Of a stretch of 64,000 nt of DNA, positions 9,990 to 38,865 are shown piece by piece. The notes under the pieces are model-generated. The model ran no database searches, was not told the origin of the DNA, and saw nothing but the letters and a program-made list of their open reading frames with translations. The stretch lies in NCBI GenBank assembly GCA_013387205.1, contig WARV01000024.1, positions 11,283 to 75,282 on the forward strand. The letters are read 5' to 3'. How positions within the stretch are numbered: position 1 is the first letter of the stretch; each line of letters begins with the position of its first letter. A program made the translations under genes and the position numbers. This DNA is from Patescibacteria group bacterium. GTDB taxonomy: Bacteria > Patescibacteriota > Doudnabacteria > UBA920.

Positions 9990-10086
9990 TTGAACAAAAT
10001 TTAAAAAATTAAATAAAATTGAACATAATTATAACTGCAGCTTATTTTTGTCTTTTATGTCAATTTTGTCATTTTTGTCATTCCCC
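9990..10086. repeat. Family C spacer element with phased 9-bp TTTTTGTCA/TGTCA direct repeats
   Basis: TAAATTAATTGAACAAAATTTAAA...ATGTCAATTTTGTCATTTTTGTCATTCC. It is about 90% identical to 10425-10528 and its repeats are shared with 38795-38865. Confidence 0.7.
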
Positions 10087-10419
10087 TTACTTCTTCTCCG
10101 GTTCCTTGGCTGCCTGCAGCTTGGCTTTTTCGGCCGCTGCCTTGGCTGCTTCCTGCTCTTTGGCCATCTTACCGCCATGCCTGATGAATTTCCTGGTTAG
10201 GGCGAATTCGCCGAGCTTGTGGCCGACCATATTTTCGGTAACGAATACCGGCATGTGGGCCCTGCCGTTATGGACCAAAAAGGTAAAGCCTACCATCTCA
10301 GGGGCGATTGCGGAATCGCGCGACCAGGTTTTAATCTGGTCTTTTCCCGGACGTCCGGCCAAAACCTTTTTCATTAATTTTGGATCAATAAATGGTCCTT
10401 TTTTTAGCGATCTAGACAT
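10087..10419 (-). CDS. rpsS: 30S ribosomal protein S19 with Ala/Lys-rich C-terminal tail
   Basis: 110 aa. Confidence 0.95.
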
Positions 10420-10424
10420 AAATT

Positions 10425-10528
10425 AATTGAGCAAAATTTAAATAATTAAATAAAATTGAACATAATTGATACTGCAACTCTTGCTTATATTTTTATCATT
10501 TATGTCAATTTTGTCATTTTTGTCAATT
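10425..10528. repeat. Family C spacer element, copy 2
   Basis: See 9990-10086. Confidence 0.7.
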
Positions 10529-11365
10529 CTACTTGCTTCTCCTCTTAACTATCATCCTATTGCTATATTTCTTCTTGGTTCTGGTCTTAACGCCAAGTGC
10601 GTGTCTGCCCCAAGGAGTTTTTGGATATTTCAAACCAATCGGGTTATGGCCTTCTCCACCACCATGAGGGTGATCAACAGGGTTCATCACTTTACCTCTG
10701 ACAGACGGCCTCCAGCCCATTAATCTCTTTCTTCCGGCCTTGCCTATCCGTACGTTCATCCAGTCGGAGTTCGCAACCTGGCCAATAGATGCCAAAGCAG
10801 TTTCCTTGATTTTCCTAATTTCGCCGCTGGGCATTTTAAGCAAAGCATATCCGGCTTCAATGTTCTGCAAAGTGGCGTAGCTTCCGGCGCTTCTGGAAAT
10901 CCTGCCGCCCTGTCCCGGTATCAATTCAATGTCATGGATCAAGGTTCCAACTGGTATCCTGCTTATAGGCAGCCTGTTGCCTGGCTTGATTTCTGCGCTT
11001 TCAGAATAAATAACAGTATCGCCGACTTTCAACCCTTCCGGAGCCAAAACGTATCTCTTAGTCCCGTCTTTGTAAGCGACTAAAGAAATAAATGCGCTGC
11101 GGGTCGGATCGTATTCCAAAGTCTGAACCTTGGCCGGAATATCTTTCTTGTCGATTCTGGAAAAATCAGTGATTCTCAAAACTCTCCTGAATCCCCCGCC
11201 CTGGTGGCGGACGGTAATTTTGCCGCTGTTATTGCGGCCAGCCTGCTTGGTTTTTGCCACGAGCAAATGGCGCGGAGTCTGGACATTCTTCTTTAAAACA
11301 GAATAATCCGTAACACTGTGAATACGCCTTCCTGCAGATGTTGGTTTGTAAATTTTTACGCTCAT
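10529..11365 (-). CDS. rplB: 50S ribosomal protein L2
   Basis: 278 aa. Confidence 0.95.
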   Translation of the reverse strand: MSVKIYKPTSAGRRIHSVTDYSVLKKNVQTPRHLLVAKTKQAGRNNSGKITVRHQGGGFRRVLRITDFSRIDKKDIPAKVQTLEYDPTRSAFISLVAYKDGTKRYVLAPEGLKVGDTVIYSESAEIKPGNRLPISRIPVGTLIHDIELIPGQGGRISRSAGSYATLQNIEAGYALLKMPSGEIRKIKETALASIGQVANSDWMNVRIGKAGRKRLMGWRPSVRGKVMNPVDHPHGGGEGHNPIGLKYPKTPWGRHALGVKTRTKKKYSNRMIVKRRSK

Positions 11366-11378
11366 ATGATTCGCTTTT

Positions 11379-11488
11379 CTACTAAATACTAATTGATACT
11401 AATTGTACTAAATATCATCAAATATACTTAATCGATCTCACTACTGGTATATGCTTTAGTATCTTTCGTATATTTTAGTATTTAGCAG
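11379..11488. mobile_element. MITE-like repeat family B, copy 2
   Basis: CTACTAAATACTAATTGATACTAATTGTACTAAATA...TTAGTATTTAGCAG in the rplB-rplW spacer. Confidence 0.75.
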
Positions 11489-11495
11489 AGATTGA

Positions 11496-11852
11496 TTAAA
11501 TAGTTTCTACCGTTCCTTCTATCTTGTCTCCGTCTTTTAAGGTTACCACGGCTTTCTTAAAACCGCTGGTCTTGCCGCTGACTCTGCCGTAATTCTTGGT
11601 TTTGCCTTTGATGTTTATCATGTTTACCATGACAACTTTGACCTGGTACGCGGTTTCCACTGCTTTCTTTACGGAAATCTTATTGGCAGACTTGGCTACT
11701 TTAAAGACATACTTGTTGCCGGCAACTAATTTTCCGGCTTTCTCGGAAATCCTGGGCTGAACCAAAACGTTTTGAAGCACCTTAGGAAGCTTTCCGGATT
11801 TAGGCTTATCAGCCTGCTTGCTGCCTTCTTCAGTTTTGTTAAAAATTGCCAT
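11496..11852 (-). CDS. rplW: 50S ribosomal protein L23 (N-terminally extended)
   Basis: 118 aa. Confidence 0.9.
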   Translation of the reverse strand: MAIFNKTEEGSKQADKPKSGKLPKVLQNVLVQPRISEKAGKLVAGNKYVFKVAKSANKISVKKAVETAYQVKVVMVNMINIKGKTKNYGRVSGKTSGFKKAVVTLKDGDKIEGTVETI

Positions 11853-11878
11853 ACTGTTTAAACCCTAAAAATTAAATG

Positions 11879-12520
11879 TTACTTTAAATAAGTTTTTTCT
11901 ATGACTTTCAAGCTGTCCTGCAACACTACAACTGAATCAGCCTTGAGCACTTCAACTACATTCAAGCTATTTGCCAGCTTCGGGGTAATTCCGGGAATGT
12001 TCCTGGAAGCCCTCTGCAGATTTTCGTCCTTTTTCGGCATCAAAAACATCTGTTTTTTGCCAATCTCTTTGACGGCTTTTTTCAAACCGGAAAGGATTTT
12101 GACGAACTCTTTAGTCTTAGGCTGGTCCAAAACCATTTCATTGATGACAATAAACTTGCCACTCTTGGCTTTGTCGGAAAGGGACATAAACAGCGCTTTG
12201 GTCTTAGCTTTCTTGTTAAGCTTTAATTCCCAGTTCTGGTTTGCTCTCGGACCGAAAGTGATACCGCCATGCCTCCAAATCGGGCTGCGGATAGATCCGG
12301 CTCTGGCGCGGCCAGTGCCTTTTTGCTTCCACGGCTTCTTGCCGCCGCCGCTGACTTCGCCGCGGGTCTTGGTGTGGGATGTTCCCTGGCGGGAGTTTAA
12401 CCTGGAAATCCTGACAGCTTCGGCCAGCAAATGCATCTGCGGTTTGACGTCAAAAATCTTGGAGTTCAATTCAATCTCGCCGACCACTTCTGCTTTTTGG
12501 TTATAGACATTTACTTTCAT
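11879..12520 (-). CDS. rplD: 50S ribosomal protein L4
   Basis: 213 aa. Confidence 0.95.
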   Translation of the reverse strand: MKVNVYNQKAEVVGEIELNSKIFDVKPQMHLLAEAVRISRLNSRQGTSHTKTRGEVSGGGKKPWKQKGTGRARAGSIRSPIWRHGGITFGPRANQNWELKLNKKAKTKALFMSLSDKAKSGKFIVINEMVLDQPKTKEFVKILSGLKKAVKEIGKKQMFLMPKKDENLQRASRNIPGITPKLANSLNVVEVLKADSVVVLQDSLKVIEKTYLK

Positions 12521-12537
12521 AAAAAAATATTGGTTAT

Positions 12538-12625
12538 ATAATCCTAATGCCCCGAATTCTTATCCGAATGCCCCAAACGGTTCCCTTTTCGGGTCATTTG
12601 GATGAATTCGTAGATTCGGATTATG
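12538..12625. mobile_element. MITE-like repeat family A, copy 3 (inside the S10 operon, rplC-rplD spacer)
   Basis: ATAATCCTAATGCCCCGAATTCTTATCCGAATGCCCCAAACGG...CGGGTCATTTGGATGAATTCGTAGATTCGGATTATG. Confidence 0.8.
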
Positions 12626-13324
12626 CTATTTTTTCTTCTTCTCTTCCTTTACTTCTGTTAATTTGACCAAAGGTTTTACTTTTCCGGTAGAGACAACCTT
12701 AATGGTGGCGTTGCGGTGTCCGGGAACTGCACCTTTAACTGTTATTAAATTCCTTGCTGGATCAACTTCCACAACCTGGAGATTCTTAACCGTAACTTGC
12801 TGGTTGCCCATATGGCCGGCCATTCTCAAGCCTTTGCGGACATGCTGCGGGAAACGCTGACCGATGGAACCGACGCTCCTGGGCTTGTTATGCCCGTGGC
12901 TGGCCGGGAAACCGGCGAAACCGTGGCGCTTAATGGCTCCGGCAAAACCGCGTCCTTTGCTTACTCCGATAACATCTACAACTTCGCCTATTTGGAAACC
13001 TGATAAATCTAATTTCTGGCCCTTTTGATAAGCACTGCTGTCATCAACCCTGAATTCAGCCAAAGCGGCAAAAGACCCTAATTCTTTCAAGTGTCCTTTT
13101 ATGGACTTGTTGGCTTTGACTTTTTTGCCCACGCCGACCTGTACTGCAGAATACTTGTCTTTGCCATCCTTGGCTTTAACCTGGGTGACAATCATTGACG
13201 AGCCCTTAATGACCGTAACTGGGATAACTGTCCCGCTTTGGTCGAAGTACTGGCTCATATTCAGTTTCTTTCCGATAAGAAAATTCATATTTTCCGTTAC
13301 TGTTTCCATTGCTCCGTTTAACAT
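12626..13324 (-). CDS. rplC: 50S ribosomal protein L3
   Basis: 232 aa. Alternative in-frame starts at 13309 and 13288 are possible. Confidence 0.9.
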   Translation of the reverse strand: MLNGAMETVTENMNFLIGKKLNMSQYFDQSGTVIPVTVIKGSSMIVTQVKAKDGKDKYSAVQVGVGKKVKANKSIKGHLKELGSFAALAEFRVDDSSAYQKGQKLDLSGFQIGEVVDVIGVSKGRGFAGAIKRHGFAGFPASHGHNKPRSVGSIGQRFPQHVRKGLRMAGHMGNQQVTVKNLQVVEVDPARNLITVKGAVPGHRNATIKVVSTGKVKPLVKLTEVKEEKKKK

Positions 13325-13384
13325 CTAAAGATATTAACCGTAGATAGGATTACTTAAATAATTAAATACTTTTAGCGTCTCTAT

Positions 13385-13409
13385 CCGCCTTCGCATAAAG
13401 CTTCGGCGG
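13385..13409. repeat. Repeat family K hairpin (CCGCC-TTCGCATAAAGCTTC-GGCGG)
   Basis: Paralogs at 18133-18155, 19236-19270 (rc), 19745-19775, 54866-54885 (rc) and 54941-54965 (rc). Confidence 0.6.
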
Positions 13410-13439
13410 ATTGTTCACTATGTATAAATTAATGTGAAC

Positions 13440-13465
13440 AAAAAAAACGGGTCTGATTTACCCGT
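13440..13465 (-). terminator. Terminator-like hairpin plus U8 tract between rpsJ and rplC
   Basis: The minus strand reads ACGGGTAAATCAGACCCGT followed by TTTTTTTT. Confidence 0.55.
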
Positions 13466-13577
13466 AATAAACTTAAATGGAAAACCATTTAAACTTTTAG
13501 GTAAATCGTTCTCTGGAATCTTGAGCTCTTGAAAGCTTTGGGATAACAGAACTAATCTACAGACATTTTAAGTTTTA

Positions 13578-13904
13578 CTAGCTCATCTTAATTTCCACAT
13601 CCACGCCGGCTGGAAGGTTCAGGTTGGTCAAAGCATCAATAGTCTTAGGAGTTGCTTCTAAAATATCAATTAATCTCTTGTGGACCCTCATTTCAAACTG
13701 TTCGCGGCTGTCTTTGTGCACGAAAGTAGAACGCAACACGGTATATTTGGTGTGTTCTGTAGGCAGCGGGATTGGTCCGGAGATTGTTGCGCCAGTCCTT
13801 TTGGCAGTTTCAACAATCTGCTTAGAGCTCTGGTCAATCAACTTATGATCGTATGCTCTAATCTTGATGCGTATTCTTGGCGGCTTATTTGCGTCCTTGT
13901 CCAT
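13578..13904 (-). CDS. rpsJ: 30S ribosomal protein S10
   Basis: 108 aa. Confidence 0.95.
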
Positions 13905-14117
13905 TTAGTTGTTGAAGGAATGAAGGTTAAGAATAAGTTATCCACCGTTTTTTCGGTGAAAATTGAATTACTTAAAATTTAAATCAAGTAGTTTAAATTT
14001 GAAATAATCCAAAAATAGGCTGTTTTTATATTCATTTAGCCACTTGGCATATATTACACTAGTGCAGTAATTTTGTCAAATCTTTAAGAAAAAGATTTTG
14101 CAATAAATTCCGCTCTA

Positions 14118-14146
14118 TTGACAAATAACTCAATGTGTGCTATAAT
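14118..14146 (+). promoter_or_regulatory. Consensus sigma-70-type promoter (TTGACA - 17 bp - TATAAT, with TGn)
   Basis: TTGACA at 14118-14123, a 17-nt spacer ending in TGC, and TATAAT at 14141-14146. Confidence 0.5.
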
Positions 14147-14328
14147 ATTTTATCAAAAATAATTTTGAAAATTAAAAGCCCCCTTATTTTAGAGCTTTTT
14201 AACACTAACAATATCAAACATATTAATGACCTATTCTTTATTAGTTTTATCCATCACTAATTCAATAAATTACATCATCACTGCAATTAATACTGCTGGC
14301 AGGTAAAACTCGCAATAAAAAAGCGTCT

Positions 14329-14364
14329 TAAGAGCTATCTGGAAAGATAGCTCTTTTAATTTTT
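14329..14364 (+). terminator. Hairpin plus T-tract (terminator/attenuator-like) in the leader upstream of the 98-aa ORF
   Basis: AAGAGCTATC-tggaaa-GATAGCTCTT followed by TTAATTTTTT. Confidence 0.5.
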
Positions 14365-14464
14365 TAAGGAGGATTCTCTTAGGGAAGTTTGCGCAGATTT
14401 TTTGATACGCAGACTCCCCTAAGAGAACTTGTTTTAACCTTAGGCGGAATGGGAGAACCCAAGC

Positions 14465-14761
14465 ATGAAGATTAATGTAATGATTCTGGAAGCTGCGCTG
14501 GCAGGCCTTGAAAAAAGAAAACGCAAAGTCGAGGAGCAGATTACTGAAGTAGAAAATCTCCTTCTCGCAAATCCTCCGAAAAAGCCGATGTCTATTGCAA
14601 CCCATGCCAGGGCCGGCAAGCGCCATATAAACGCTGAAAGCCGCGAACGAATCGCAGAGGGACAAAAAAAACGCTGGAACAAATGGCGCAAACAGCAGAA
14701 GAAGGCCAAAAGAGCGCCAACCTTGCAGACTAAAACTTCTGCGGACAGAAAAAACAGGTAA
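14465..14761 (+). CDS. Hypothetical highly basic small protein (K/R-rich C-terminus)
   Basis: 98 aa. GGGAGA SD 8 nt upstream. The overlapping minus-strand ORFs have implausible composition. Confidence 0.5.
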   Translation: MKINVMILEAALAGLEKRKRKVEEQITEVENLLLANPPKKPMSIATHARAGKRHINAESRERIAEGQKKRWNKWRKQQKKAKRAPTLQTKTSADRKNR

Positions 14762-14941
14762 GATGCAGGCGGCATACCGCCAAAAGTTCACAAGACGGCG
14801 CAAAGCTTTGCGCCGTCTTTCATTTTGCCCATTAATATTATTATTTCGATATTATTCTAAGTCCTGGTGATCCTTAAAATACTATACAGTATTGTGGTTT
14901 TGCCGAAATTTGATGCCGCAACAAAACTCTGACATTACTTC

Positions 14942-14975
14942 ACTGCTTCGAAGCAGTGAAGTAATGTCAAGAAAA
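14942..14975. repeat. Hairpin repeat family L (CATTACTTCACTGCTTCGAAGCAGTGAAGTAATG)
   Basis: Perfect palindrome. Paralogs at 25039-25072 and 25574-25602. Confidence 0.65.
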
Positions 14976-14980
14976 TTAAA

Positions 14981-15009
14981 ACCCCTCCCGGAAGGGAGGG
15001 GTTTTTCTA
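14981..15009 (-). terminator. Bidirectional rho-independent terminator downstream of tuf
   Basis: AAAACCCCTCCC-ggaa-GGGAGGGGTTTTT. Confidence 0.8.
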
Positions 15010-15035
15010 AACGCTAAGCGCTGTACGCTAAACGC

Positions 15036-16226
<1,191 letters not shown>

Positions 16227-16476
16227 GAGAAGTGTTTCCTTTCTTTCGTCCCGAGAAACCCTAAGCCTTGCGTCTATCGATTTGGCGCAAGGCCAAGGGT
16301 TTTTCTCTTTTTTTCCTAACCTGCCATGTCCCAAATCCGCCAACTGGCGGATAGGACGGTCGGATCGGAATCCAGGGACGATTATGCCACTTTTAGGTGG
16401 CAATATTAATTGTTATACGCATGTTAAATTTTAAAGAATTTTTCCCATCCTGTCAAACACCATAAAATAACAAAAC

Positions 16477-16515
16477 GATGGGAATCTTCTGGGGCAGCCC
16501 CAGAAGATTCCCATC
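16477..16515. repeat. Palindromic hairpin (GATGGGAATCTTCTGGGGC/GCCCCAGAAGATTCCCATC)
   Basis: 19-bp perfect stem with the same GATGGGAATCTT core as 31-68. It lies just downstream of the lipoprotein gene stop. Confidence 0.6.
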
Positions 16516-16526
16516 AAGGAAACTCA

Positions 16527-17636
16527 TTATTGTCCTGACGGCTTTATTAATTCCGTTGATACGTTTAAAGACTTTACAATGTCGGTTAAATTAGACTCAG
16601 GAGTTTTTTGCCAAACAACCACATAATTTCCCCCGGTTTGCGGCGAGAAAATAATCCACTGCTCGCTTCCCTTGGCAAAACTTTGCATGTCTTTCGCATT
16701 CTGGATTTCAATTTTATTTTCAGCCTTTTTGCAATCGGGACAAGGCTTAACGGCATTCCAATATTCCAAAGCACTGGAAGCCCCAATGGCATCGTTGCTG
16801 TAAAACCCGATCTTCAACAAATTATTTTTGCTTTTGTCGCTCAGGATTAAATAATTATTTTGTTTAGTGATTATATATTTGTCTTTTGGATAATTTAGGC
16901 TGTAATGGAACCGGGTTACATATCCTTCGTAATTGGCGTCATGCGTCCCGGAGTAATTCGCCTGCTTTGAATCAGAGATGAACTTAAACGTGCCGAGTAC
17001 CTGATCCAGCCTGTTCCAAACTTCCGTCTGGTTAAATTCTTTAATCGTTCCTTTAGGGTAATTGTCGATGTTGGTATTAGCAACGCGCTGCATTATTTCG
17101 TAGCAGGTGTTATTATGGAAACTCCTGTAAACTTTAACACTGTCAAAATGCCCTAAGGCTGCACCACCGCCAGTGGCCGAATGGAAATCAGTATTATTGA
17201 TTTTTACAATGCCGGCGTCTTTTTGAGCTTCGTTGGTTGAAACGTTAAAGTTATAGCACTGGCTTTGGGTATTTAAATCTTTCAAGATATTTACCGAAAC
17301 TCCGGCGCTGTCAAAATTCGTGCCTGAATATTTATCCTTGGTTAAATACGCACATGCAGCCGTTGTGTCATCACAAGCCGGAATATAAGAAAGCGGGCGG
17401 ATTTTGCTTATATCCGTGTTAAACCCAAAATCATTTGGGTACTGGATAGAAAACCCATACTTAGCAGGACTGGTATAAGTGTTCCAGCCATTCTTGTTGC
17501 CTTGGGGAAGATTTTGGGAATTATCACTGGTTAATGTGGATTGATTAGTCTGTTTTGGCTCGTTTTTTTGCGCCTGCTGATTACATGAAGCAGCAAGCAG
17601 TACTATCGCTGAAACCAAAAATAGATATTTCTTCAT
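16527..17636 (-). CDS. Hypothetical secreted protein / putative lipoprotein
   Basis: 369 aa. N-terminal signal peptide MKKYLFLVSAIVLLAASC with a lipobox-like AASC, then an N/Q/S/T-rich mature region. Confidence 0.5.
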   Translation of the reverse strand: MKKYLFLVSAIVLLAASCNQQAQKNEPKQTNQSTLTSDNSQNLPQGNKNGWNTYTSPAKYGFSIQYPNDFGFNTDISKIRPLSYIPACDDTTAACAYLTKDKYSGTNFDSAGVSVNILKDLNTQSQCYNFNVSTNEAQKDAGIVKINNTDFHSATGGGAALGHFDSVKVYRSFHNNTCYEIMQRVANTNIDNYPKGTIKEFNQTEVWNRLDQVLGTFKFISDSKQANYSGTHDANYEGYVTRFHYSLNYPKDKYIITKQNNYLILSDKSKNNLLKIGFYSNDAIGASSALEYWNAVKPCPDCKKAENKIEIQNAKDMQSFAKGSEQWIIFSPQTGGNYVVVWQKTPESNLTDIVKSLNVSTELIKPSGQ

Positions 17637-17669
17637 AAAATCGCCGATCTAATTATTTGAGCTATCCTG

Positions 17670-17743: not shown

Positions 17744-17792
17744 GATCCAGTACTTATGCTTTAATCCTGAATCAAGTTCAGGACAGGCTCTA

Positions 17793-18120: not shown

Positions 18121-18300
18121 CTCGGGTCCCATCCTTCGCATAAAGCTACGGCGGGCACAGCAAGCCCGGGGTGGAAACCGAGGACACCATCCAGGAATTT
18201 CGAGTGTATCGGAGAAATATCCGGGATCCAGTACATATTCGCATTGTATAATTCAGCCACGAAGTGGCCCCTTCGAGGCGTACTTATCGGCGACGTTTCT
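18121..18300. repeat. Composite repeat block (family K hairpin, right 74-bp direct repeat at 18161-18234, family G module)
   Basis: CCTTCGCATAAAGCTACGGCGG, then the CAAGCCCGGGGTGGAAACC..CCGGGATCCAGTAC repeat, then CAGCCACGAAGTGGCCCCTTCGAGGCG. Confidence 0.7.
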
Positions 18301-18305
18301 GCGGT

Positions 18306-19744: not shown

Positions 19745-19915
19745 ATTGCTTTCACCTTCGCTAAAGCTACGGCGGACAAGTCGGCTGCACTCATAAGACA
19801 TCTAGCCAATTTTAAAGGGCCAACCGTTAGGTTGGCCCTTTCAACTTCAGCGATATATCCGCCACGAAGTGGCCCCTTTGGGGCGTTGCTATCCGCGAGT
19901 AATCCGCGGTACTAC
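19745..19915. repeat. Composite repeat block (family K plus family G modules) downstream of fusA
   Basis: CCTTCGCTAAAGCTACGGCGG ... CCGCCACGAAGTGGCCCCTTTGGGGCGTTGCTATCCGCGAGTAATCCGCGG. Confidence 0.65.
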
Positions 19916-22846: not shown

Positions 22847-22990
22847 AGATTTACTTCGTAAATTTTCTACTAAATACTAATTATTACTAATTGTACTAAA
22901 TATTATCAACCAAGCTTTATTGATATCACTGTTGGTATATAGCTTTAGTATATTTAGTATCCTTTAGTATTTAGTAGAAGTATTAGTAGA
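22847..22990. mobile_element. MITE-like repeat family B, copy 3 (rpsL-rpsG spacer)
   Basis: AGATTTACTTCGTAAATTTTCTACTAAATACTAATTATTACTAATTGTACTAAATA...TTAGTATTTAGTAG. It abuts the S7 start. Confidence 0.75.
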
Positions 22991-22994
22991 GAGA

Positions 22995-28075: not shown

Positions 28076-28187
28076 CATAATCCGAATTACCCAAAAAATA
28101 TCCTAATAACCCGAAAACAAGACCAACCAAAGGTTGGTCTTGTTTATTTAGGGGCATTCGGATGCTAATTCGGGGCATTAGGATTAC
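28076..28187. mobile_element. MITE-like repeat family A, copy 4 (reverse orientation)
   Basis: CATAATCCGAATTACCC...GGGGCATTCGGATGCTAATTCGGGGCATTAGGATTAC. Confidence 0.75.
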
Positions 28188-28189
28188 AT

Positions 28190-28444: not shown

Positions 28445-28568
28445 AATTACGAATTATACTGACCAATCTACTAATGTAACGAATAAAGCGAATGACAACT
28501 AATGCGTACTAAGAGAGAATTAGTTGTCATTGGTTATTATTAGCATGAATTCGTTGATTGGTTAATCC
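28445..28568. mobile_element. MITE-like repeat family H, copy 2
   Basis: It fills the entire spacer between the MGMT start and the DUF3048 stop. Confidence 0.7.
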
Positions 28569-30881: not shown

Positions 30882-30925
30882 TCGAACAACCATTAATACT
30901 TATAAATAAACCATCTTTATAACGA

Positions 30926-31192: not shown

Positions 31193-31216
31193 TTTTAATC
31201 CTTTTTAGGATTTCTT

Positions 31217-31290: not shown

Positions 31291-31326
31291 TTAATTACTG
31301 GTTAAATATAAATTGAAATTTGGTTT

Positions 31327-31366
31327 GATTGCGTATCTGCCTCATCGGCAGCTATACTACAACCCG
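31327..31366 (-). other. Partial duplicate of tRNA-Pro 5' half (tRNA remnant)
   Basis: Minus strand reads CGGGTTGTAGTATAGC.., which matches the tRNA-Pro acceptor and D arm (CGGGATGTAGTATAG), then diverges. Confidence 0.4.
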
Positions 31367-32093
31367 AAAATGTGATAATTAACTAACTTATTATAGCAAA
31401 AGAAATATATTAAAAAAAGTGGCGCCCCGGAAATCCACTTGTTGCCTGGTAAGGCTGTTGGATTAAATCCGGGGCATAATGTAATGTTATTTCACCGCTT
31501 GAGATGTTCGGCGGGTATATAAACCAAGGGCGGTTGGCCTGGCAGACTCCCGCAACTTACACACCTGTTGTCTATTGGATTACACTCTTGATCAGAACCA
31601 CAGCAAGAGCAAAATCTTATCTTTACAGGACCGCTCAAAGCGGAACTCTTCAAAGATGTTTCCGACATCGTTCCTCCTAAAATATCACTTGCTACAGCAA
31701 GCAGCTACGCCTTGCAGATTTGGACGGCATATCTCATAGGGGGCGAGGCATGACTTGCATACATCTTCCCCTGATTTCGGGTCTTCCTTTACTTCTGTGA
31801 CCTTTCCGCAAAACCCGCAAAACCTCTTGTCGACCTGATTCTCTTTATTCATCCTGAATCCCCCTTATTCTAACTGCAAAACTTGGTCTAAAATTTTAGG
31901 CAAAATTTTCCAGTAAGAAAGTGTTGCCAGGCTCAACACTTTATGAAAAATCTTTGGTAGAAAGATATCCACAAAGGTGTTGAGCCTGGATTGCGCGCGG
32001 GAGCCGGTTGGCTTTGCGCAAAATGGGTGGGTGGAATGCATGGCCAGTGTTACGGCTGATCAGCCGACAAAAGACGCTTCCCCGTCCACAAAA

Positions 32094-32396
32094 TCATTGC
32101 TCCGTGAGCTCCAAGTAATTCAAAATCTCCGAAAAAGTTGCCGGCGTGGCATTCCTGACGCAATTTGTCCGACAAGCCAGCGTTTCCTTACGGTCTGACG
32201 TCCTGATCAAAGCAAATGGTATTTTTGATCTAGTGACCTCATAACTGTTCGGGCAATGCGGACACTTCACATCAAGCTGATAAATTTTCTGATTTCTGTC
32301 CCTTTTCGCTTGGAACTCTGGTTTTCTGGGTACTTCTTGAATTAGAACTATCCGCACCTCGATCTCATCAAAATCAAGGTGCGCCAACGTGCTCAT
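32094..32396 (-). CDS. Hypothetical protein with CPHC...CRTNC zinc-ribbon-like motifs
   Basis: 100 aa with a strong AAGGAGGA SD. Confidence 0.5.
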   Translation of the reverse strand: MSTLAHLDFDEIEVRIVLIQEVPRKPEFQAKRDRNQKIYQLDVKCPHCPNSYEVTRSKIPFALIRTSDRKETLACRTNCVRNATPATFSEILNYLELTEQ

Positions 32397-32743
32397 GAGC
32401 TTAGTCCTCCTTAAATTCCAAACTCACTTCTGATGCAATCCAATTTAATCCCAAAGCTTTAGGACGAAATCGGATTGCGCCAGTTATTTTAAAGAGCTAA
32501 TCCTTTTAAAAAACCTGCCCTTTTTTGGGGCAGGTTGTAAGCTTCTTTTTCAAGTAAAGCTACTTACCCTTTTGCCCCGCAAAACCCTACGTTAAGGACA
32601 GCCTTAGTAACAAAGGCTACGACGGAGGAATTAATTTGGCGGGCAAAGTTGCTCATAAAAGGGTTCTTCAAAAAATACTGTTTAAAATATTATAAACAGC
32701 AATAAAAAATGTGTCAAATGATATTCATTCAACTATCAAGGGG

Positions 32744-32780
32744 ACACCTTGTACTGCACTAGGTGTCCCCTTGAAATACC
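32744..32780. repeat. Palindromic hairpin family M (CAAGGGGACACCTTG ... CTAGGTGTCCCCTTG)
   Basis: Downstream of the parB stop. Paralog at 52748-52787. Confidence 0.6.
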
Positions 32781-32834
32781 CAATAAAATCAGGTATTTTA
32801 AATGGCTCAACCTAGGCTCAAGCCATTCATTTTT

Positions 32835-33857
32835 CTATACGGTTAGATAAGAGCCCCCTTGCTCTGATGATTCCTGTGCCATCTTGTGGATAAGCTCATC
32901 AAGTTCTTCATCACTAAAGAATTCTATGGTAATCCTACCTCCTCTACCCTGGCGCTGGATTTTCACCTGGGTTCCGAGCTTGCCGCGCAACTCAGTTTCC
33001 ATGGCCATAAGTTTTGGGTCAGGAGCGGCGGCATCCATCTGCCTCTTTAAGGTCAACTCCCTGACTTTGGCTTCCACCTGCCTGACGTTAAGGCCCTGGT
33101 CCAAAACCATTTTGTACATCAAAAGAATTTTTTCCGGATCTACCAACCCAAGCATTGCGCGGGCGTGGCCTTCGGTAATCTTTTCTTCAATCACCCCGCG
33201 CTGGATTTCCGCCGGCAAATTAAGCAAGCGAACCGTGTTTGCCACAGCAGGCCTGGACTTGCCGACTTTCTTTGCCACCTGCTCCTGGGTCATGTTAAAG
33301 GTTTTCATCAGCCTTTCATAAGCCTGGGCTTCCTCTATGGGATTCAACTCCTTGCGCTGGATGTTTTCAATTAACGCCACTTCCAATTTAGTCTGGTCAA
33401 CCATGGCTTCTTTTATGATAGCCGGAACTTTTTCCAATCCTGCCAACTGGCTGGCCCTGAACCTTCTTTCTCCCACGACCAATTCAAACCCAACCGGCGT
33501 CCTGGTAACCACCAAGGGCTGAATGACTCCATGCTCTTTTATGGATTCCGCCAACTCCTTTAAGGCATTTGGTTCAAAAATTTTCCTGGGCTGATAAGGA
33601 TTCGGAGCGATTTTGGCAACTTCAATTTCCTGAATTTGCGCGTCTTCATAGGAAACCCTGTCTGGATTTGCGGGTTTTTGCTGAAGCTCTGGTGCTACAG
33701 GCTGACTGTCTGCAGCCTGGTTTTCTGTTTGGCTGACGGTCGTCGTCTCAGGCACCTGCGTAATAGGCTGCTGCACTGCGACTACAGACTGCGACACTCC
33801 TATGTTGTCTAAAGATTGTATTGTTATGTTTGGCTGGCTGGCAATTTGGTCTTCCAT
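32835..33857 (-). CDS. parB: ParB/Spo0J-family partition protein with about 70-aa low-complexity N-terminal extension
   Basis: 340 aa with GERRFRA, an HTH (MTQEQVAKKVGKSRPAVANTVRLL) and a C-terminal dimerization motif. No parA is adjacent. Confidence 0.85.
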   Translation of the reverse strand: MEDQIASQPNITIQSLDNIGVSQSVVAVQQPITQVPETTTVSQTENQAADSQPVAPELQQKPANPDRVSYEDAQIQEIEVAKIAPNPYQPRKIFEPNALKELAESIKEHGVIQPLVVTRTPVGFELVVGERRFRASQLAGLEKVPAIIKEAMVDQTKLEVALIENIQRKELNPIEEAQAYERLMKTFNMTQEQVAKKVGKSRPAVANTVRLLNLPAEIQRGVIEEKITEGHARAMLGLVDPEKILLMYKMVLDQGLNVRQVEAKVRELTLKRQMDAAAPDPKLMAMETELRGKLGTQVKIQRQGRGGRITIEFFSDEELDELIHKMAQESSEQGGSYLTV

Positions 33858-34152
33858 GTCATTTGTTTCTTATGATTTTCTAAGGCTTTATTCTTGTAAA
33901 ATCTTAACAAATTTTACGGCTTTGGGCAACTTGAACCCGGGCTTTACGAAATTCCCAAACATTGCTAAAATATATAAGAATCTGTTAGAAAAATAATTTT
34001 TAGGCGATATTTTAGAATTTCGAGGCAGTCGGACATAACAAATTTCGATGTTTAGCCGTAGGCTAAGCGGAGGAATTTTTATGGCCGAATGGCCGAAATT
34101 ATAAAATTGCAGCCAAGAAGTATTTTTCTAACAGGTTCATGAAGTTAATATT

Positions 34153-34237
34153 GGCCGAGTGGCGGAATTGGCAGACGCGCACGACTCAAAATCGTGTATC
34201 GAAAGGTGTGAGGGTTCGACTCCCTCCTCGGCCACCA
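34153..34237 (+). tRNA. tRNA-Leu (anticodon CAA), type II with long variable arm
   Basis: GGCCGAG-TG-GCG-GAATTGGCAGA-CGC-G-CACGA-CTCAAAA-TCGTG-TATCGAAAGGTGTG-GAGGG-TTCGACT-CCCTC-CTCGGCC-A-CCA. Confidence 0.85.
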
Positions 34238-34395
34238 CGTACCAGTCGAAAACCTAACGGTTCGAGAATGGTGCATGCCGTGTACCGAAGTCACTTTAGT
34301 GACGAGTGGTTCACGGCTGTCCGTGTTCGCTCGGGTACATGGCACAGCCATGTACATGACAATGCGAGTGGTACATGAAAAAAGATTAGTTTAAT
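34238..34395 (+). ncRNA. Candidate structured RNA / tRNA trailer co-transcribed with tRNA-Leu
   Basis: A GC-rich (about 55%) stretch of about 150 nt with several local hairpins (GTCACtttaGTGAC; CATGGCacaGCCATG). It runs from the tRNA to a terminator at 34396-34424 and has no coding potential. Confidence 0.3.
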
Positions 34396-34424
34396 TTCCC
34401 CTACTCCTAGAACTGGGAGTTTTT
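34396..34424. terminator. Bidirectional terminator (ACTCC-tagaactg-GGAGT plus T6)
   Basis: It lies between the convergent tRNA-Leu transcript and uppP. Confidence 0.65.
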
Positions 34425-35269
34425 TATTTGCCTAAAATCTTATTTAACCAGAATTGAAGTTCCCCCCTATTCAACACTATAAGCACTATCAACACGGCTA
34501 ATATCAACCTATACCAAATAAACAGCGCGAACCCGTGTTTCGATAAGTAACGAATTAAATATTTAATGGCAATAAACCCGAAGACCGCAGCAGAAACAAA
34601 ACCAATTATCAACTCCTGGGTCGTAACTCCTTCGTGAAGGTGGTTGATATTTAAAATACCAGCCCCCAAAATAATCGGGATAGACATCAAAAAGGAAAAC
34701 CTGGCTGCATCAGCGCGCTTAAAACCCAAAGCCACCCCCGATGCGATTGTACTGCCGCTTCTTGATACTCCAGGGATTACAGCCAAAGCCTGGCTTAAGC
34801 CGACTAATAAAGAATCAAACCATGTGATGCGGTCTAAATTTTTTATCTTTTTCCCATAATAATCCGCCAACCAAAGCAGAAGAGCAAAACCGCTGATCGT
34901 AACAGCAATGAGCAGCGGATTCCTAAAAGCATTTTCTGCATCCTGTTCGAGCAGCTTGCCGATTATCGCTCCGGGAACGGAAGCGATAATTAAAAACCAG
35001 GCAAGTTTTTGGTAGATATTATTCTCGAAATCGCGGGTAGATTTAAACAGCGAATGCCAGAAGCCTTTAATCAGCAGCCAAATATCCTGCCAAAAATACG
35101 CAAGCACGGCTGCCAAGGTTCCAAGATGCAGGGCAACGTCAAAACCTAAGCCCGGATCGCTCCACCTGAAAAACCACGGTGCCAATATTAAATGCGCAGA
35201 TGAAGAAATCGGCAAAAACTCCCCCAAACCTTGAATAGCTCCTAACACTGCTGAATGCAATATAGTCAT
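34424..35269 (-). CDS. uppP: Undecaprenyl-diphosphatase
   Basis: 281 aa with GLGEFLPISSSAHL and a C-terminal PGxSRSG motif. Confidence 0.9.
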   Translation of the reverse strand: MTILHSAVLGAIQGLGEFLPISSSAHLILAPWFFRWSDPGLGFDVALHLGTLAAVLAYFWQDIWLLIKGFWHSLFKSTRDFENNIYQKLAWFLIIASVPGAIIGKLLEQDAENAFRNPLLIAVTISGFALLLWLADYYGKKIKNLDRITWFDSLLVGLSQALAVIPGVSRSGSTIASGVALGFKRADAARFSFLMSIPIILGAGILNINHLHEGVTTQELIIGFVSAAVFGFIAIKYLIRYLSKHGFALFIWYRLILAVLIVLIVLNRGELQFWLNKILGK

Positions 35270-35296
35270 ATAAGATATAGGATTTAAGATTTAAGA

Positions 35297-35650
35297 TTAA
35301 GATTTTTTTCCTGCGGAATTTTTCGTAGAAAACATTATTGCTGTAATTTCATCAGCTTCCTTTAATAATGGTTCAACTAAATTTATTTTCATCAATTTTG
35401 AATCAATTATCATTTCCAACCAAAAACAACTTTCATCTGATTCTTCAACCACTATTCCGATTTTCGCAACGAATTCCTGTTTTGATCTTGATCTGCAAGC
35501 AGCGCGATAATTAACCGCTACTGCAGTCCCAGATCTCAGTAATTGATTTCCTATTACCCTACCTGCATCATTTCTTGGTAAAGCTTGGGTTAACTTAATA
35601 ATCCTAAGAGCGAATTGTTTCGTCCTATTTTTTAGATCTTGTTTATCCAT
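35297..35650 (-). CDS. Four-helix-bundle protein (TIGR02436 / 23S rRNA intervening-sequence protein family)
   Basis: 117 aa, ..QLLRSGTAVAVNYRAA..SKQEFVAKIGIVVEESDESCFWLEMI. Confidence 0.8.
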   Translation of the reverse strand: MDKQDLKNRTKQFALRIIKLTQALPRNDAGRVIGNQLLRSGTAVAVNYRAACRSRSKQEFVAKIGIVVEESDESCFWLEMIIDSKLMKINLVEPLLKEADEITAIMFSTKNSAGKKS

Positions 35651-35685
35651 ATATCTTAAATCATATATGATAAATCCTAAATTAT

Positions 35686-36936
35686 TTATTCAATTCCCGG
35701 AACCGGAAAATTTAAGGAGAATTCTTTGACTTGCTGTTTTATTTCAGCGAGTTTGTTTTCGTCGTTACGGCTTGCCAAAGCTTGATCCATTAAATCCGCC
35801 ACGGTTTGCATTTCTGCTTCCAACATTGCCCTGGTGGTAATGGCCGGAGTACCCAGGCGTACGCCGGAAGGATCCAGCGGCTTTCTTGGGTCGTAAGGAA
35901 TCATGTTTTTGTTGATGGAAATACCTACGTGCTCCAAAGTTTTTTCCGCTTCCTTGCCAGTAATGCCTTTGCTGCCAAACATATCAACTAACATTAAATG
36001 ATTATCTGTGCCGCCAGAAATTATACGGTAGCCTTTTTCCTGCAGAGCTGTTGCCAAAGCTTTGGCATTTTTAATAATCTGCGCCGCATAATCCTGGAAC
36101 TCAGGCTTTAGCGCTTCTCCGTAAGCCACGGCTTTGGCCGCGTTAATGTGGTCATGCGGGCCGCCTTGCACTCCCGGAAAAACTGCCTTGTCTATTAAGG
36201 CAGCAAACTTTTCCTTGCACATAATCATAGCCCCGCGCGGCCCGCGCAAAGTTTTGTGCGTAGTCGTGGAAACCACATCAAAATAAGGTACCGGGTTTTC
36301 CAATTGTTTTCCGGCAATTAGTCCTGCAATATGGGCAATATCGGCAAAAGTAAAAGCACCAATCTTGTCCGCAATTTCCTTAAACCTTTTCCAATCCATA
36401 TTCCTGCTATATGCGGAAAAGCCTGCCAAAATCATTTTGGGTTTTTCCCGCAAGGCAATTTCCTCCACTTCATCCATATCAATAATTTCAGTTTCCTTTT
36501 TGGCAAAGTAAGGAATGATGGTGTATAGCTTGCCGCTGAAATTTAAAGGGTGGCCGTGCGACAAATGTCCGCCCTGGTCCAGAGAAAACCCCAAAACTTT
36601 ATCGCCGGGATTAAGCAGAGCCATATAAACCGCCAAATTAGCCGGACTGCCGGACAAAGGCTGTACGTTTACATGCTCTGCATCAAATAACTGCTTGGCC
36701 CGCTCTATAGCCAAGCCTTCTGCCTGGTCGATTATTTCATTGCCGCCATAATATCTTTTTCCCGGATACCCTTCGCTGTACTTATTGGCTAAGACGGATC
36801 CCATAGCCTCAAGCACAGCCTTGGAAACATAATTTTCAGAAGCAATTAGTTCAATTCCCTCTTTTTGTCTTTGCTCCTCGCGTTTGATAATTTCGTAAAG
36901 CGCGGGGTCTTGTTGTTGTATACCAGAATAATTCAT
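35686..36936 (-). CDS. glyA: Serine hydroxymethyltransferase
   Basis: 417 aa from the ATG at 36936. The ORF extends to a TTG at 36981. Confidence 0.95.
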   Translation of the reverse strand: MNYSGIQQQDPALYEIIKREEQRQKEGIELIASENYVSKAVLEAMGSVLANKYSEGYPGKRYYGGNEIIDQAEGLAIERAKQLFDAEHVNVQPLSGSPANLAVYMALLNPGDKVLGFSLDQGGHLSHGHPLNFSGKLYTIIPYFAKKETEIIDMDEVEEIALREKPKMILAGFSAYSRNMDWKRFKEIADKIGAFTFADIAHIAGLIAGKQLENPVPYFDVVSTTTHKTLRGPRGAMIMCKEKFAALIDKAVFPGVQGGPHDHINAAKAVAYGEALKPEFQDYAAQIIKNAKALATALQEKGYRIISGGTDNHLMLVDMFGSKGITGKEAEKTLEHVGISINKNMIPYDPRKPLDPSGVRLGTPAITTRAMLEAEMQTVADLMDQALASRNDENKLAEIKQQVKEFSLNFPVPGIE

Positions 36937-37045
36937 TGATTTAAAGAAATTAATAATCTGAAAAATTATACAATTGTACAAATTTTCAGTTTATCACAAA
37001 TTTAGTTCATGGTATTTAATTTGCAGCTTATTCTTTTGCATGTAT

Positions 37046-37465
37046 TTAGAATTTAATTTCAAACTCCTCGTTATTATCTAAATCAACATACCTAATCAAT
37101 TTTGGCAAAACTTTAAAATAACAGTTTCCGGGTATTTTGGAATATTTTTCAAAACTCGGTTTTTTCTTTATGTGAACGCTCACGTATTTTTCCCTTTCCT
37201 GATCAAAAACTTCTTTAGCGGCACCTTCGTATTGGATAGTTTTACTGTCATTTCCGCCTACTACAAAAGAAATACTTGGATTGTTTTGCAGGTTTTTATA
37301 TTTTCTGGTGCTATTAAAACATCCGAATACCAGTTCCAAATCTTCAGTCTCCCCAAAACCCACCAGCGCACTTTCCGGCAAATTATCTAATGCTACAGTG
37401 GATAGCACTCCAAGGGTATATCTCTTAAATACTGCTAGTATCTTGCTTTTTTGTTGCGGTTCCAT
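37046..37465 (-). CDS. Pyridoxamine 5'-phosphate oxidase-like (FMN-binding split barrel) family protein
   Basis: 139 aa. The pattern resembles general-stress-protein-26 / PNPOx-like proteins. Confidence 0.55.
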   Translation of the reverse strand: MEPQQKSKILAVFKRYTLGVLSTVALDNLPESALVGFGETEDLELVFGCFNSTRKYKNLQNNPSISFVVGGNDSKTIQYEGAAKEVFDQEREKYVSVHIKKKPSFEKYSKIPGNCYFKVLPKLIRYVDLDNNEEFEIKF

Positions 37466-37497
37466 ATCTTACATCTTATATCCTAAATCTTAACTCT

Positions 37498-38646
37498 CTA
37501 TATGTACATATACAGCAAGCTAAACACCGCTGCTAGTATGAATAGTACCATAAAACTGCCGGTCAGGCTAAAAAGGATTATGCCTAAAATACAGGCTATT
37601 AATTTGCCAATAGCCAAGCTTTGCTCGAAAAACACGGCATAAGGCACTACATGCGTGGCTTCTGCCCGAAGGTAGGTTAGCGTGGAAATAGGAATAAAGT
37701 CTATTTCCTTGCTGGCGCGGGACAAAGAATCAATCACAAAAACTGACATAACGCTGGTAGCTATAAACCTGGCAACCCAGACCAAGCTAGACATGAACGC
37801 GCCAATCTTTATTAATATCCTTTTGGTATACTGATCGGTAATTTTACCTAAAAATAGAGCAAGCAAAGCAGCGGCCAAGCTAGCCATTGTTGCCAAAAAA
37901 CCCGTGCCTTCATAATCTTTCACGATCAAATAAATAAATATAGGCCAGATGGTCAGCACAATTAATTCTTCCCCAAATCCCAAGTAACCGATGAATTTTT
38001 TCGGATACGATTTATACAATTCCAAAGTGTCGCTGAATTTGTATATTTTGGGAATAAAAATTTCTTGTGCCGTAAGAATAGGAATAATACTACAGCAATA
38101 CAAAACCGCGGAAAACAAAAACGCGGCAGGTATTCCAAAATATTGGGAGAGCAGTCCTCCAACTAGCGGCCCGACAACATGCGAAATGCTGATAATGGCA
38201 TAGACCATGGAAAATTCCCTGCCGACCTGCTCTTGTTGGCCGTACCTGGCCATGACCGAATGAAAACCTGGCCAATAAAAAGATTTTTGGATACCAAAAA
38301 TCACAGCCCCAAAAAACGCCAAATTTGGATGATTGACGCTAGAGAGCAAGGCAAACCAATAAAAAACCTGGAAGGGAACGCTTAAAGCAATACTGTGACG
38401 GTAGCCGAAGACGCTGGCAAACTTGGCGCCGTAAGGAATGGTAATAATATACACAGCATAAACCACTGCCATGAAAAGCAGGATTTTCGGCACCGTGTAG
38501 TTTAAAACCGAATATAGGAAGATAGGCTCAAACAGCATGACTACAGCCAATGCCATGTTCGATATTGCCGAGGAAGCATACAGCTCCCCTATCTCCCTGC
38601 GCACGCTTTTATTGAAGTATTGTGGAAGATGAAAATTTAAAAGCAT
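37498..38646 (-). CDS. MFS transporter
   Basis: 382 aa with about 11-12 TM helices and a G..SQYFG motif. Confidence 0.8.
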   Translation of the reverse strand: MLLNFHLPQYFNKSVRREIGELYASSAISNMALAVVMLFEPIFLYSVLNYTVPKILLFMAVVYAVYIITIPYGAKFASVFGYRHSIALSVPFQVFYWFALLSSVNHPNLAFFGAVIFGIQKSFYWPGFHSVMARYGQQEQVGREFSMVYAIISISHVVGPLVGGLLSQYFGIPAAFLFSAVLYCCSIIPILTAQEIFIPKIYKFSDTLELYKSYPKKFIGYLGFGEELIVLTIWPIFIYLIVKDYEGTGFLATMASLAAALLALFLGKITDQYTKRILIKIGAFMSSLVWVARFIATSVMSVFVIDSLSRASKEIDFIPISTLTYLRAEATHVVPYAVFFEQSLAIGKLIACILGIILFSLTGSFMVLFILAAVFSLLYMYI

Positions 38647-38865
38647 AGATTAAATGACAAAATTGACAAAATTTAAATAATTAACATAAATGACGCTTGG
38701 CGTCATCCTGAGCGAATGCAGCTGAGCGAAGGATCTCTTGAGCAACAAGAGAAGATTCCTCGGCTGCACTCGGAATGACAACTTCATATAAAATAAGGTT
38801 TGTCATTTTTGTCATTTATGTCATTCTCGTCGTTTTTGTCATTTGGATTATTTTTGTTTCCATAT
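38647..38865. mobile_element. Composite palindromic element: TGACAAA(A) 9-bp direct-repeat arrays flanking a GTCATCCTGAGCGAATGC...GCACTCGGAATGAC inverted-repeat core
   Basis: The core at about 38690-38790 is paralogous to in-frame insertions at 41181-41325 (leuS) and 49920-50070 (M24 peptidase). The flanks share TTTTTGTCA units with family C. Confidence 0.7.

Follow-up and report, generated by a model that had tools for sequence, protein, structure and literature searches.

Phased 9-bp repeats between genes of a Doudnabacteria genome are arms of a dispersed intercistronic palindrome

The 64,000-nt stretch of contig WARV01000024.1 analysed here (the window, which is the 64 kb of the source genome that we examined) carries short direct repeats with a TGTCA core, TGACA on the transcribed strand, in exact 9-bp register beside the ribosomal-protein genes rpsS and rplV and between leuS and the gene for a major facilitator superfamily (MFS) transporter. 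We show that these phased repeats are one arm of a dispersed, non-coding, imperfect palindrome of about 92 nt located in intercistronic spacers, and that this palindrome, the TGACA element, is present in multiple copies at many non-orthologous intercistronic sites and is one of at least six such families in the window. The family is confined to a clade of Candidatus Doudnabacteria (Patescibacteria, the candidate phyla radiation or CPR), which are tiny bacteria of soil and peat. We favour, with a probability of roughly 0.55, the explanation that it is a non-autonomous selfish palindrome, resembling miniature inverted-repeat transposable elements (MITEs) and the ERIC and Correia repeats, that is co-transcribed with its neighbours and tolerated in very short intercistronic spacers. 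The TGACA element belongs to a known kind, the dispersed intergenic palindromic repeats, as a new variant.

Direct inspection and motif matching placed units with at most one mismatch to TTTTTGTCA at exact 9-bp steps at 10045/10054/10063/10072 and at 10490/10499/10508/10517. A third array has such units at 38806/38815/38833 together with degenerate ones at 38797 and 38824, and a two-unit mirror array lies on the opposite strand at 38655/38664 (span 38655-38672). In line with this, Tandem Repeats Finder (TRF) called period-9 repeats at 10044-10082, 10491-10528, 38799-38844 and 38655-38673. Pairs of TGTCA/TGACA cores numbered seven at spacing 9, against zero or one at each of the other spacings tested from 6 to 13; three in-phase runs of at least three cores were present in the window, and the 9-mer with one mismatch was matched 68 times, compared with 45.7 +/- 6.0 in shuffled sequences. 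The exact 9-bp spacing proposed in the initial annotation was thus confirmed at 10045-10080, 10490-10525 and 38797-38844, with the amendment that the third array, placed at 38800-38860, ends at about 38844. The mirror-image array reported near 38650-38690 is also real and comprises the two opposite-strand units within a whole arm at 38652-38694. The further claim that each unit contains a TTGACA -35-like hexamer did not hold, since the perfect hexamer was found in only 4 of 15 units, the others reading ATGACA, AAGACA, ATGATA or ACGACG.

Followed along the transcribed strand, the arrays are (TGACAAAAA)n; they begin 0-6 nt past the stop codons of rpsS, rplB and leuS. As all flanking genes are encoded on the minus strand, each array adjoins the stop codon of the gene before it, the next start codon following about 65-70 nt further downstream; their description as lying upstream of rpsS and rplV needs correcting to this extent. 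Each array proved to be one inverted arm of a palindrome, as had been suggested with the idea that the arrays might be the ends of a palindromic element. The full layout runs from the stop codon through 0-6 nt, four 9-nt units (for example TTGACAAGA, TTGACATGA, TTTAAAAGA and ATGACAAGA), a loop, about 15 nt long, in which CTGCA is almost invariant, and four complementary units, each about 10 nt long (as in ATCATG[N]TCAA ... TCTTG[N]TCAAT, in which the one extra base gives a bulge), to a final 6-7 nt before the ATG of the next gene.

Profile search found exactly three copies in the window, w1, w2 and w3 (Table 1). The two ribosomal copies, w1 and w2, are 85% identical; beyond the array each continues with a CTGCAG or TTGCAG centre, a T-rich arm (TTATGTTCAA ... 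TTTTGYTCAA, TRF period 10), 6 nt and the ATG. These second, complementary arms (9988-10031 and 10424-10469, period 10) had been missed in the first reading. The stop-proximal arm begins 6 nt past the rpsS stop codon in w1 and 3 nt past the rplB stop codon in w2, and the last base of the start-proximal arm lies 6 nt ahead of the rplV ATG in w1 and 5 nt ahead of the ATG of the MFS gene in w3. As proposed initially, mirror arrays flank a composite structure at 38650-38850, and this is a TGACA-family element (w3) whose loop holds a nested, unrelated, GC-rich palindrome with a minimum free energy of -70.9 kcal/mol (z = -8.5) and a second copy at 41184-41285. The CGACG unit variant of w3 recurs in the related locus L005. 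The spacer at 36982-37045 resembles a decayed copy by eye and was rejected, as it scored 0 bits against the profile. A 135-aa open reading frame (ORF) at 10019-10426 (+) runs antisense to rpsS and spans part of both ribosomal elements; gene callers that go by length would pick it over the real rpsS of 110 aa, an annotation trap created by the AT-rich repeats.

We then extended the census beyond the window. A search of JGI metagenome contigs with a degenerate pattern covering all known copies yielded 33 stretches; about 24 belong to the family, and nine (L081, L082, L084, L085, L087, L090, L091, L097 and L102) were discarded by eye as chance matches. The profile search identified about 35 distinct copies with E-values down to 1e-25: the three of the window, seven in three related Doudnabacteria metagenome-assembled genomes or MAGs (L001 with two, L002 with one and L005, contig CAVYGQ010000001.1 of 949 kb, with four), and the remainder on metagenome contigs, among them contigs from peat and soil samples such as Ga0182027, Ga0207111 and Ga0134121. 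No copies were found when viral contigs were scanned with the family pattern, two matching stretches, one of them on a contig equal in length to that of the chance hit L085, being judged chance matches without closer inspection. In an alignment of 30 copies (A1), the core is 91-94 nt long in 29, with a mean column identity of 70%; it is free of ORFs and confined to the gap from a stop codon to the following ATG. The distance from the first to the second unit is 9 nt in all 30 copies and that from the second to the fourth 18 or 19 nt. The TGACA cores, which form the most conserved columns, show little or no variation, and the central CTGCA is present in 26 copies, with TTGCA and CTACA in two each.

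Judged by the flanking genes, the family occupies at least 15 different sites. Ten are ribosomal-protein junctions (rplD-rplW, rplW-rplB, rplB-rpsS, rpsS-rplV, rplV-rpsC, rplP-rpmC, rplE-rpsN, rpsH-rplF, rplF-rplR and rpsM-rpsK), and the non-ribosomal ones include leuS-MFS as well as sites preceding genes that resemble purN, fpg, gyrA and rsmI. Direct reading of the alignment also revealed features specific to a genome, namely TTCATG in two of the four L005 copies and a TTTTATTTAATT segment in both window copies; such features common to copies within one genome indicate intragenomic copying or homogenisation. Within the literature searched on intergenic repeats or MITEs of CPR/Patescibacteria, we found no description of these elements.

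The two arms co-evolve, and their complementarity is maintained by compensated changes from G-C to A-T. Across the 30 copies, 90% of the outer and inner helix cells pair, compared with 27-47% when the partner columns are slid, and 34 cells are changed on both sides, against 16.1 +/- 4.1 in shuffles, none of 500 of which reached 34; both the pairing and the both-sides-change figures are inflated by subfamily structure. Columns 17/84 hold G-C in 14 copies and A-U in 13, and columns 26/74 hold G-C in 16 and A-U in 13, these two inner-helix pairs switching as a block. The terminal inverted repeats read ATTGACAAGA and TCTTG(T)TCAAT, with 83% of the outer helix and 95% of the inner helix paired. RNAalifold recovered only the inner helix (10 pairs, consensus energy -4.8 kcal/mol), in which the second unit pairs with the 3' arm's first unit; individual full-length hairpins use alternative registers of the repeated units, and we therefore do not assert one consensus fold for the family. 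Certain copies form hairpins that are almost perfect (L101, -41.5 kcal/mol, z = -9; L110, z = -6), while the ribosomal copies of the window are eroded, w1 folding no better than shuffled sequence (z = +0.7) and the other copy reaching z = -1.9. Two tests for selection on the RNA strand were negative: folding was as good for the antisense as for the sense strand (mean z -2.6 and -2.4), and G-U pairs (5) are outnumbered by A-C mismatches (14). Thus, nothing marks the sense RNA as the selected form, and the symmetry lies at the DNA level.

The closest genomes by rplB protein are Candidatus Doudnabacteria MAGs with 76-81% amino-acid identity; four top rplB matches are labelled 'uncultured Candidatus Saccharibacteria' and group by identity with these MAGs. 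We extracted the rplW-rplB-rpsS-rplV-rpsC spacers from 16 related loci, none of which exceeds 83% nucleotide identity to the window. In these relatives, the TGACA element is found elsewhere in the operon, at rplW-rplB in L001, L002 and L005 and at rplV-rpsC in L005, and the spacers that bear it in the window hold other hairpin repeats, with units such as TTAGCAA, AAGTAAC and CTAGAGAA. Six further relatives (L004, L010, L012, L013, L015 and L018) are element-free, their spacers at the three exactly measured positions being 1-43 nt long. Since the element is elsewhere or absent in relatives, it was gained in part of the clade, and the occupied positions turn over.

Two related loci have rplB-rpsS spacers of 0.7-1.1 kb that contain an extra ORF (L005, 6837-7535; L007, 937-2042), the predicted product of which begins MKK..LL.IPFLFLAAA and resembles a lipoprotein signal; in L007 a hairpin repeat precedes the ORF. 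Whole genes have therefore been inserted inside the S10 operon in this clade.

Rfam 15, searched with the whole window, matched only three tRNAs and no family at the element. Against the defining features of bacterial MITEs given in a review (PMC3184786), the element is short and non-coding (MITEs being below about 400 bp), has terminal inverted repeats and exists as many dispersed non-orthologous copies; we do not file it as a MITE because no target-site duplication was found, nor any transposase among the 29 window ORFs scanned. The closest parallels are Correia/NEMIS of Neisseria and ERIC/IRU of enterobacteria, which are likewise non-coding imperfect palindromes, of about 100-150 bp, multi-copy and intergenic (PMC3184786); they too are often co-transcribed, form long hairpins able to affect mRNA processing or stability, and differ in their sites between related genomes. 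The TGACA family differs from them in having no detectable TA or other target-site duplication, in arms made of four tandem 9-10-nt units rather than a unique terminal inverted repeat, in occupying the whole spacer between the stop codon and a point 6-7 nt ahead of the ATG, in its strong orientation bias, and in its host, a CPR bacterium with no cognate transposase known and with copies inside ribosomal-protein operons. In other bacteria, regions rich in essential genes are usually 'repeat deserts' (PMC3184786).

REP/BIME (PU) sequences and their RAYT transposases offer a second parallel as dispersed extragenic palindromes within operons that form stem-loops in mRNA. Identity with REP/BIME was rejected, as REPs are 20-40 nt long, rich in G+C and carry a conserved GTAG, whereas the TGACA element has 92 nt, about 20% G+C and no GTAG in its consensus, and no RAYT was seen. 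Hairpin repeats of organelles (sponge mitochondria, PMC2800124; Volvox, PMC2670323) comprise several AT-rich families in the spacers of compact genomes and are read as selfish, with occasional insertion into genes; the TGACA family is bacterial, and its unit-built arms and stop/start geometry are not described for the organelle repeats.

On the explanation that we favour, the element would be, or would once have been, selfish DNA that spread into the gaps of a few nucleotides between adjacent genes. The 9-bp phasing would reflect arms built from tandemly duplicated short units, which may formerly have been recognition modules for a mobilising protein and not regulatory iterons. Co-transcribed with the operon, the element would pair its arms in the mRNA and so place the upstream stop and the downstream start at the base of one helix; a palindrome, unlike other inserts of 90 nt, would fold away, and the termination-reinitiation coupling of the ribosomal-protein cistrons could survive. 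Coupling preserved in this manner would explain why the element is tolerated between ribosomal-protein genes that mostly have no Shine-Dalgarno site. Within 25 nt upstream of the start codon, a loose Shine-Dalgarno-like tetramer was found for 14 of 61 genes in the whole window, with a clear AAGGAGG in about six, and for none of the operon-internal ribosomal-protein genes; to judge by these sequences, translation initiation appears to be largely Shine-Dalgarno-independent.

Several observations weigh against this explanation. The scan for target-site duplications (k = 2-5, boundary offsets of up to 4 nt either way) found none, the best excess being 6 against 2.8 expected; no transposase or integrase was detected among the 29 window ORFs scanned against Pfam; and no longer element bounded by TGACA arms and enclosing a coding segment, as an autonomous partner would be, was present in the sequences examined. 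Furthermore, look-ups of the exact rpsS and L22 proteins returned no record, and the nearest L22 homologues besides the source protein have at most 65% identity, with no close strain among them in which insertion polymorphism could be seen. Twenty-six copies share the orientation of the profile, with the ATG at the aligned end. Such a bias is unexpected for random insertion of DNA and suggests selection linked to transcription or replication, two frames of orientation that are not separated by the contigs examined. Between genomes, the element is 0.62-0.87 identical, in most pairs above the 0.48-0.59 seen at four-fold degenerate sites of the adjacent rplB, and this better conservation fits constraint or homogenisation rather than pure junk. 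Selfish DNA in decay would not need conservation as strong as that of the CTGCA centre, the TGACA cores and the 6-7-nt distance to the ATG.

The orientation bias and the conserved bulges also suggest that there is real room for the main rival, a selected RNA function, which we regard as a tentative alternative of appreciably lower probability. Here, the element would be an intercistronic RNA module that acts in translational coupling, with the terminating ribosome melting the base of the helix and exposing a start codon 6-7 nt away, or as a site for RNase III or RNase E, with a processing or stability role as in T7 intergenic hairpins or ERIC/Correia transcripts; the 9-nt and 10-nt periods of its arms would give a regularly bulged double-stranded RNA. 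Such a module accords with a strict geometry repeated at many independent sites, the stop codon lying 0-6 nt before the 5' arm and the 3' arm nearly always ending 6-7 nt from the ATG, and with most genes having no Shine-Dalgarno site. Every copy with the extra base in its 3' arm (TG[T/C/A]TCAA) belongs to the 26 sense-oriented ones, with the 9-nt arm by the stop and the 10-nt arm by the ATG; the bulge keeps its position, although its base may be T, C or A. The compensated changes that maintain pairing, the conservation above neighbouring four-fold sites, and the unrelated TACTAAAT family described below, which has the same 10-nt/9-nt arm asymmetry and orientation, point the same way. However, neither strand has a folding advantage over the other, A-C mismatches are more numerous than G-U pairs, and the ribosomal copies of the window fold weakly. 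Some relatives have no element at these positions, the three copies that lie reversed with respect to their genes all belong to the symmetric subfamily, and the confounding of transcription with replication applies to the orientation bias here as well.

A bolder version of this rival, which we consider unlikely, is that the spacers within the ribosomal-protein operons of this clade, in which Shine-Dalgarno sites are largely absent, have been rebuilt with interchangeable unit-built palindromes that replace direct stop-start overlap, each hairpin keeping the stop and the next start at its base and, once unzipped by the terminating ribosome, licensing reinitiation. If so, the bulged 9-nt/10-nt helix and the CUGCA loop would be functional, perhaps in processing or protein recognition, and the TGACA, TACTAAAT and other families would be alternative solutions to one structural requirement rather than junk.

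A protein-binding array at the DNA level, whether iterons or operators for a helix-turn-helix protein or response regulator, or stacked -35 hexamers that would serve rpsS, rplV and the MFS gene as internal promoters or UP-like elements, is in our judgement improbable. The TGACA cores are indeed the most conserved columns of the alignment, TTGACA is the sigma-70 -35 consensus, and the 9-nt register puts an A-rich hexamer 17 nt after a unit, so that the best match of a sigma-70 scan, ATGACA-17-AAAAAT (9/12), falls in both ribosomal copies, with 22 hits in the region against 12.2 +/- 3.5 expected. This putative -10 is part of the next repeat unit, however, and is therefore not conserved independently of it; candidates for a -10 are weak, the nearest TATAAT-like hexamers of the window lie 13-24 nt from a unit, and the alignment contains no conserved -10 box at a fixed distance. 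Equivalent spacers carry families of the same architecture with wholly different units and without any TGACA, which argues against the element as the site of a sequence-specific regulator and favours a property at the level of structure or a common mode of origin. Relatives with spacers of 1-43 nt in the same operon require no internal promoter or binding array there.

The TGTCA core with its 4-nt A/T spacer resembles a Pho-box half-site, and plasmid iterons are likewise short direct repeats with TGTCA-like cores and A/T spacers. Pho boxes recur every 11 bp and TGACA units every 9 bp, off the helical repeat of 10.5 bp, whereas iterons are helix-phased, 17-22 bp long and sit beside a rep gene or origin. 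An iteron or operator array was consequently rejected on its 9-bp period, on the co-varying inverted partner arm that is always present and on the sites themselves, at least 15 unrelated spacers between ribosomal and housekeeping cistrons with no replication gene and no rep or partition context. The interpretation in the initial annotation is thus partly supported, and its iteron or -35 component, the least supported of the serious options, is mostly unsupported.

Single-strand recombination sites of the attC type, imperfect palindromes recognised by structure in which extrahelical bases set the choice of strand, are a still poorer candidate, and we think it very improbable that the element is one. 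The attC sites and Vibrio cholerae repeats are also imperfect palindromes (about 60-140 nt) between co-directional genes, placed between one stop and the next start, with unrelated sequences that have one common fold conserved above the sequence and extrahelical bases conserved on one arm. The resemblance is architectural only: identity with integron attC was rejected because the RYYYAAC/GTTRRRY core sites (R' and R'') are absent, the ends being ATTGACA and TGTTCAAT, and no integrase is encoded among the 29 ORFs; the ribosomal-protein gene order is the universal one, which argues against any shuffling or mobility of cassettes. Chance AT-rich low-complexity sequence, conceivable in spacers of 17-26% G+C, is already refuted and next to impossible, given the concentration of core pairs at spacing 9, the roughly 35 homologous copies and the conserved length and phase; the 9-nt step from first to second unit, present in all 30 aligned copies, contradicts the case, named initially as fatal to the repeats, of a motif without conserved phasing.

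Genomes of CPR/Patescibacteria are regarded as small and streamlined. In this window, nearly every spacer of the S10/spc ribosomal-protein cluster holds a palindromic repeat of about 100-140 nt from at least six families, where some relatives have 1-43 nt, which points to an active lineage-specific process that inflates intercistronic spacers. The clade also shows, as an experiment of nature, how far secondary structure can be accommodated or put to use in the polycistronic mRNA of ribosomal-protein genes. For annotation, the repeats mimic promoters (TTGACA) and iterons and spawn spurious antisense ORFs, and they may complicate metagenome assembly.

Table 1. Positions in the window of the TGACA copies, their flanking genes and further palindromic spacer families
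Feature	Position	Strand	Evidence or remark
rpsC	8642-9331	-	Pfam
rplV	9407-9982	-	Pfam
rpsS	10087-10419	-	Pfam
rplB	10529-11365	-	Pfam
rplW	11496-11852	-	Pfam
MFS transporter gene	37498-38646	-	Pfam
leuS	38902-42090	-	Pfam
w1, entire rpsS-rplV spacer, one TGACA-family palindrome	9983-10086	-	nhmmer, 60.3 bits against the family profile
w1 stop-proximal arm, four 9-nt units, sense ATGACAAAA, ATGACAAAA, TTGACATAA, AAGACAAAA	10045-10080	-	TRF period 9, 4.3 copies
w1 centre, CTGCAG	10035-10040	strand-neutral	Direct sequence view, alignment A1
w1 start-proximal arm, TTATGTTCAA...TTTTGTTCAA	9988-10031	-	TRF period 10, 4.5 copies; partly complementary to the 5' arm
w2, entire rplB-rpsS spacer, with an 8-nt insertion beside the centre	10420-10528	-	nhmmer, 48.8 bits; alignment A1
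w2 stop-proximal arm, four 9-nt units TTGACAAAA, ATGACAAAA, TTGACATAA, ATGATAAAA	10490-10525	-	Sequence, TRF
w2 centre, sense TTGCAG	10472-10477	-	Direct sequence view
w2 start-proximal arm, period about 10	10424-10469	-	Sequence, TRF
w3 stop-proximal arm, five 9-nt units TGACAAAAA, CGACGAGAA, TGACATAAA, TGACAAAAA, TGACAAACC	38797-38844	-	Sequence, TRF, profile
Insert within the w3 loop	38695-38796	-	Core 38702-38783, GC-rich palindrome GTCATTCCGAG...CTCAGGATGAC of another repeat family
w3 start-proximal ('mirror') arm	38652-38694	-	77% complementary to 38802-38844 (inverted repeat I13)
TACTAAAT family, three copies	7959-8095, 11366-11495, 22847-22994		84-89% identical, z from -3.5 to -5.2
Palindromic family sites	553-657, 3469-3562, 12521-12625		Also a partial inverted copy, 28148-28189
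Palindromic family sites	4052-4179, 28445-28568, 47916-48039
Palindromic family sites	5124-5298, 19847-19914, 18253-18304
Palindromic family site	8507-8641

The window contains at least five further palindromic spacer families of three copies each, with arms made of tandem units of 7-10 nt (Table 1). Most of them fold far better than shuffled sequences (z from -3 to -9), and several recur at other positions in relatives. The TACTAAAT family occupies the rplP-rpmC and rplW-rplB spacers and one more; its start-proximal arm has period 10 and its stop-proximal arm period 9. Four more multi-copy families have the units CCGAATGCCCC, ACTAATG, a GC-richer one and AATTATTCT, and several of these four recur elsewhere in the related contigs L096, L094, L007, L009 and L005.

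Some other spacers are short. Those of 17-35 nt at 35271-35305, 37466-37497, 42797-42827, 43349-43380 and 38870-38900 consist almost entirely of heptanucleotide tandem repeats (TAAGATT, ATCTTAA, AGATTTA, GAATTAA and CCTAAAA) and form no hairpin; growth of spacers by duplication of short units may be general in this genome. Two pairs of GC-rich inverted repeats (18120-18171/54938-54989 and 19748-19780/54849-54881), which are 92-94% complementary and contain ...TTCGC(A/T)AAAGCTACGGCGG..., make up another dispersed family with copies about 35 kb apart.

The GC-rich palindrome nested in w3 has a sister within leuS. At 41184-41285 (-), an in-frame palindrome, GTCATTCTGAGCG...CTCAGGATGAC, occupies about residues 268-302 of the leuS ORF and adds the peptide ...RRHSERVQPSEESHPQSNKEILRPSDASGTQDD... 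directly ahead of the conserved KVFTTRPDT, resembling the in-frame palindromic elements of Rickettsia; its counterpart in the w3 loop is the core at 38702-38783. The predicted leucyl-tRNA synthetase (LeuRS), 1062 aa in length, also has an internal serine-hydrolase (alpha/beta-hydrolase) domain at residues 434-616, directly after the editing domain (Pfam PF06821, E = 1.4e-18; PF00561), which is an unusual insertion for this enzyme. A gene at 42087-42452 overlaps the leuS start by 4 nt and encodes a DUF559 endonuclease-like protein, and another at 35297-35650 encodes a 23S rRNA intervening-sequence protein (PF05635); both families are often tied to mobile or selfish contexts.

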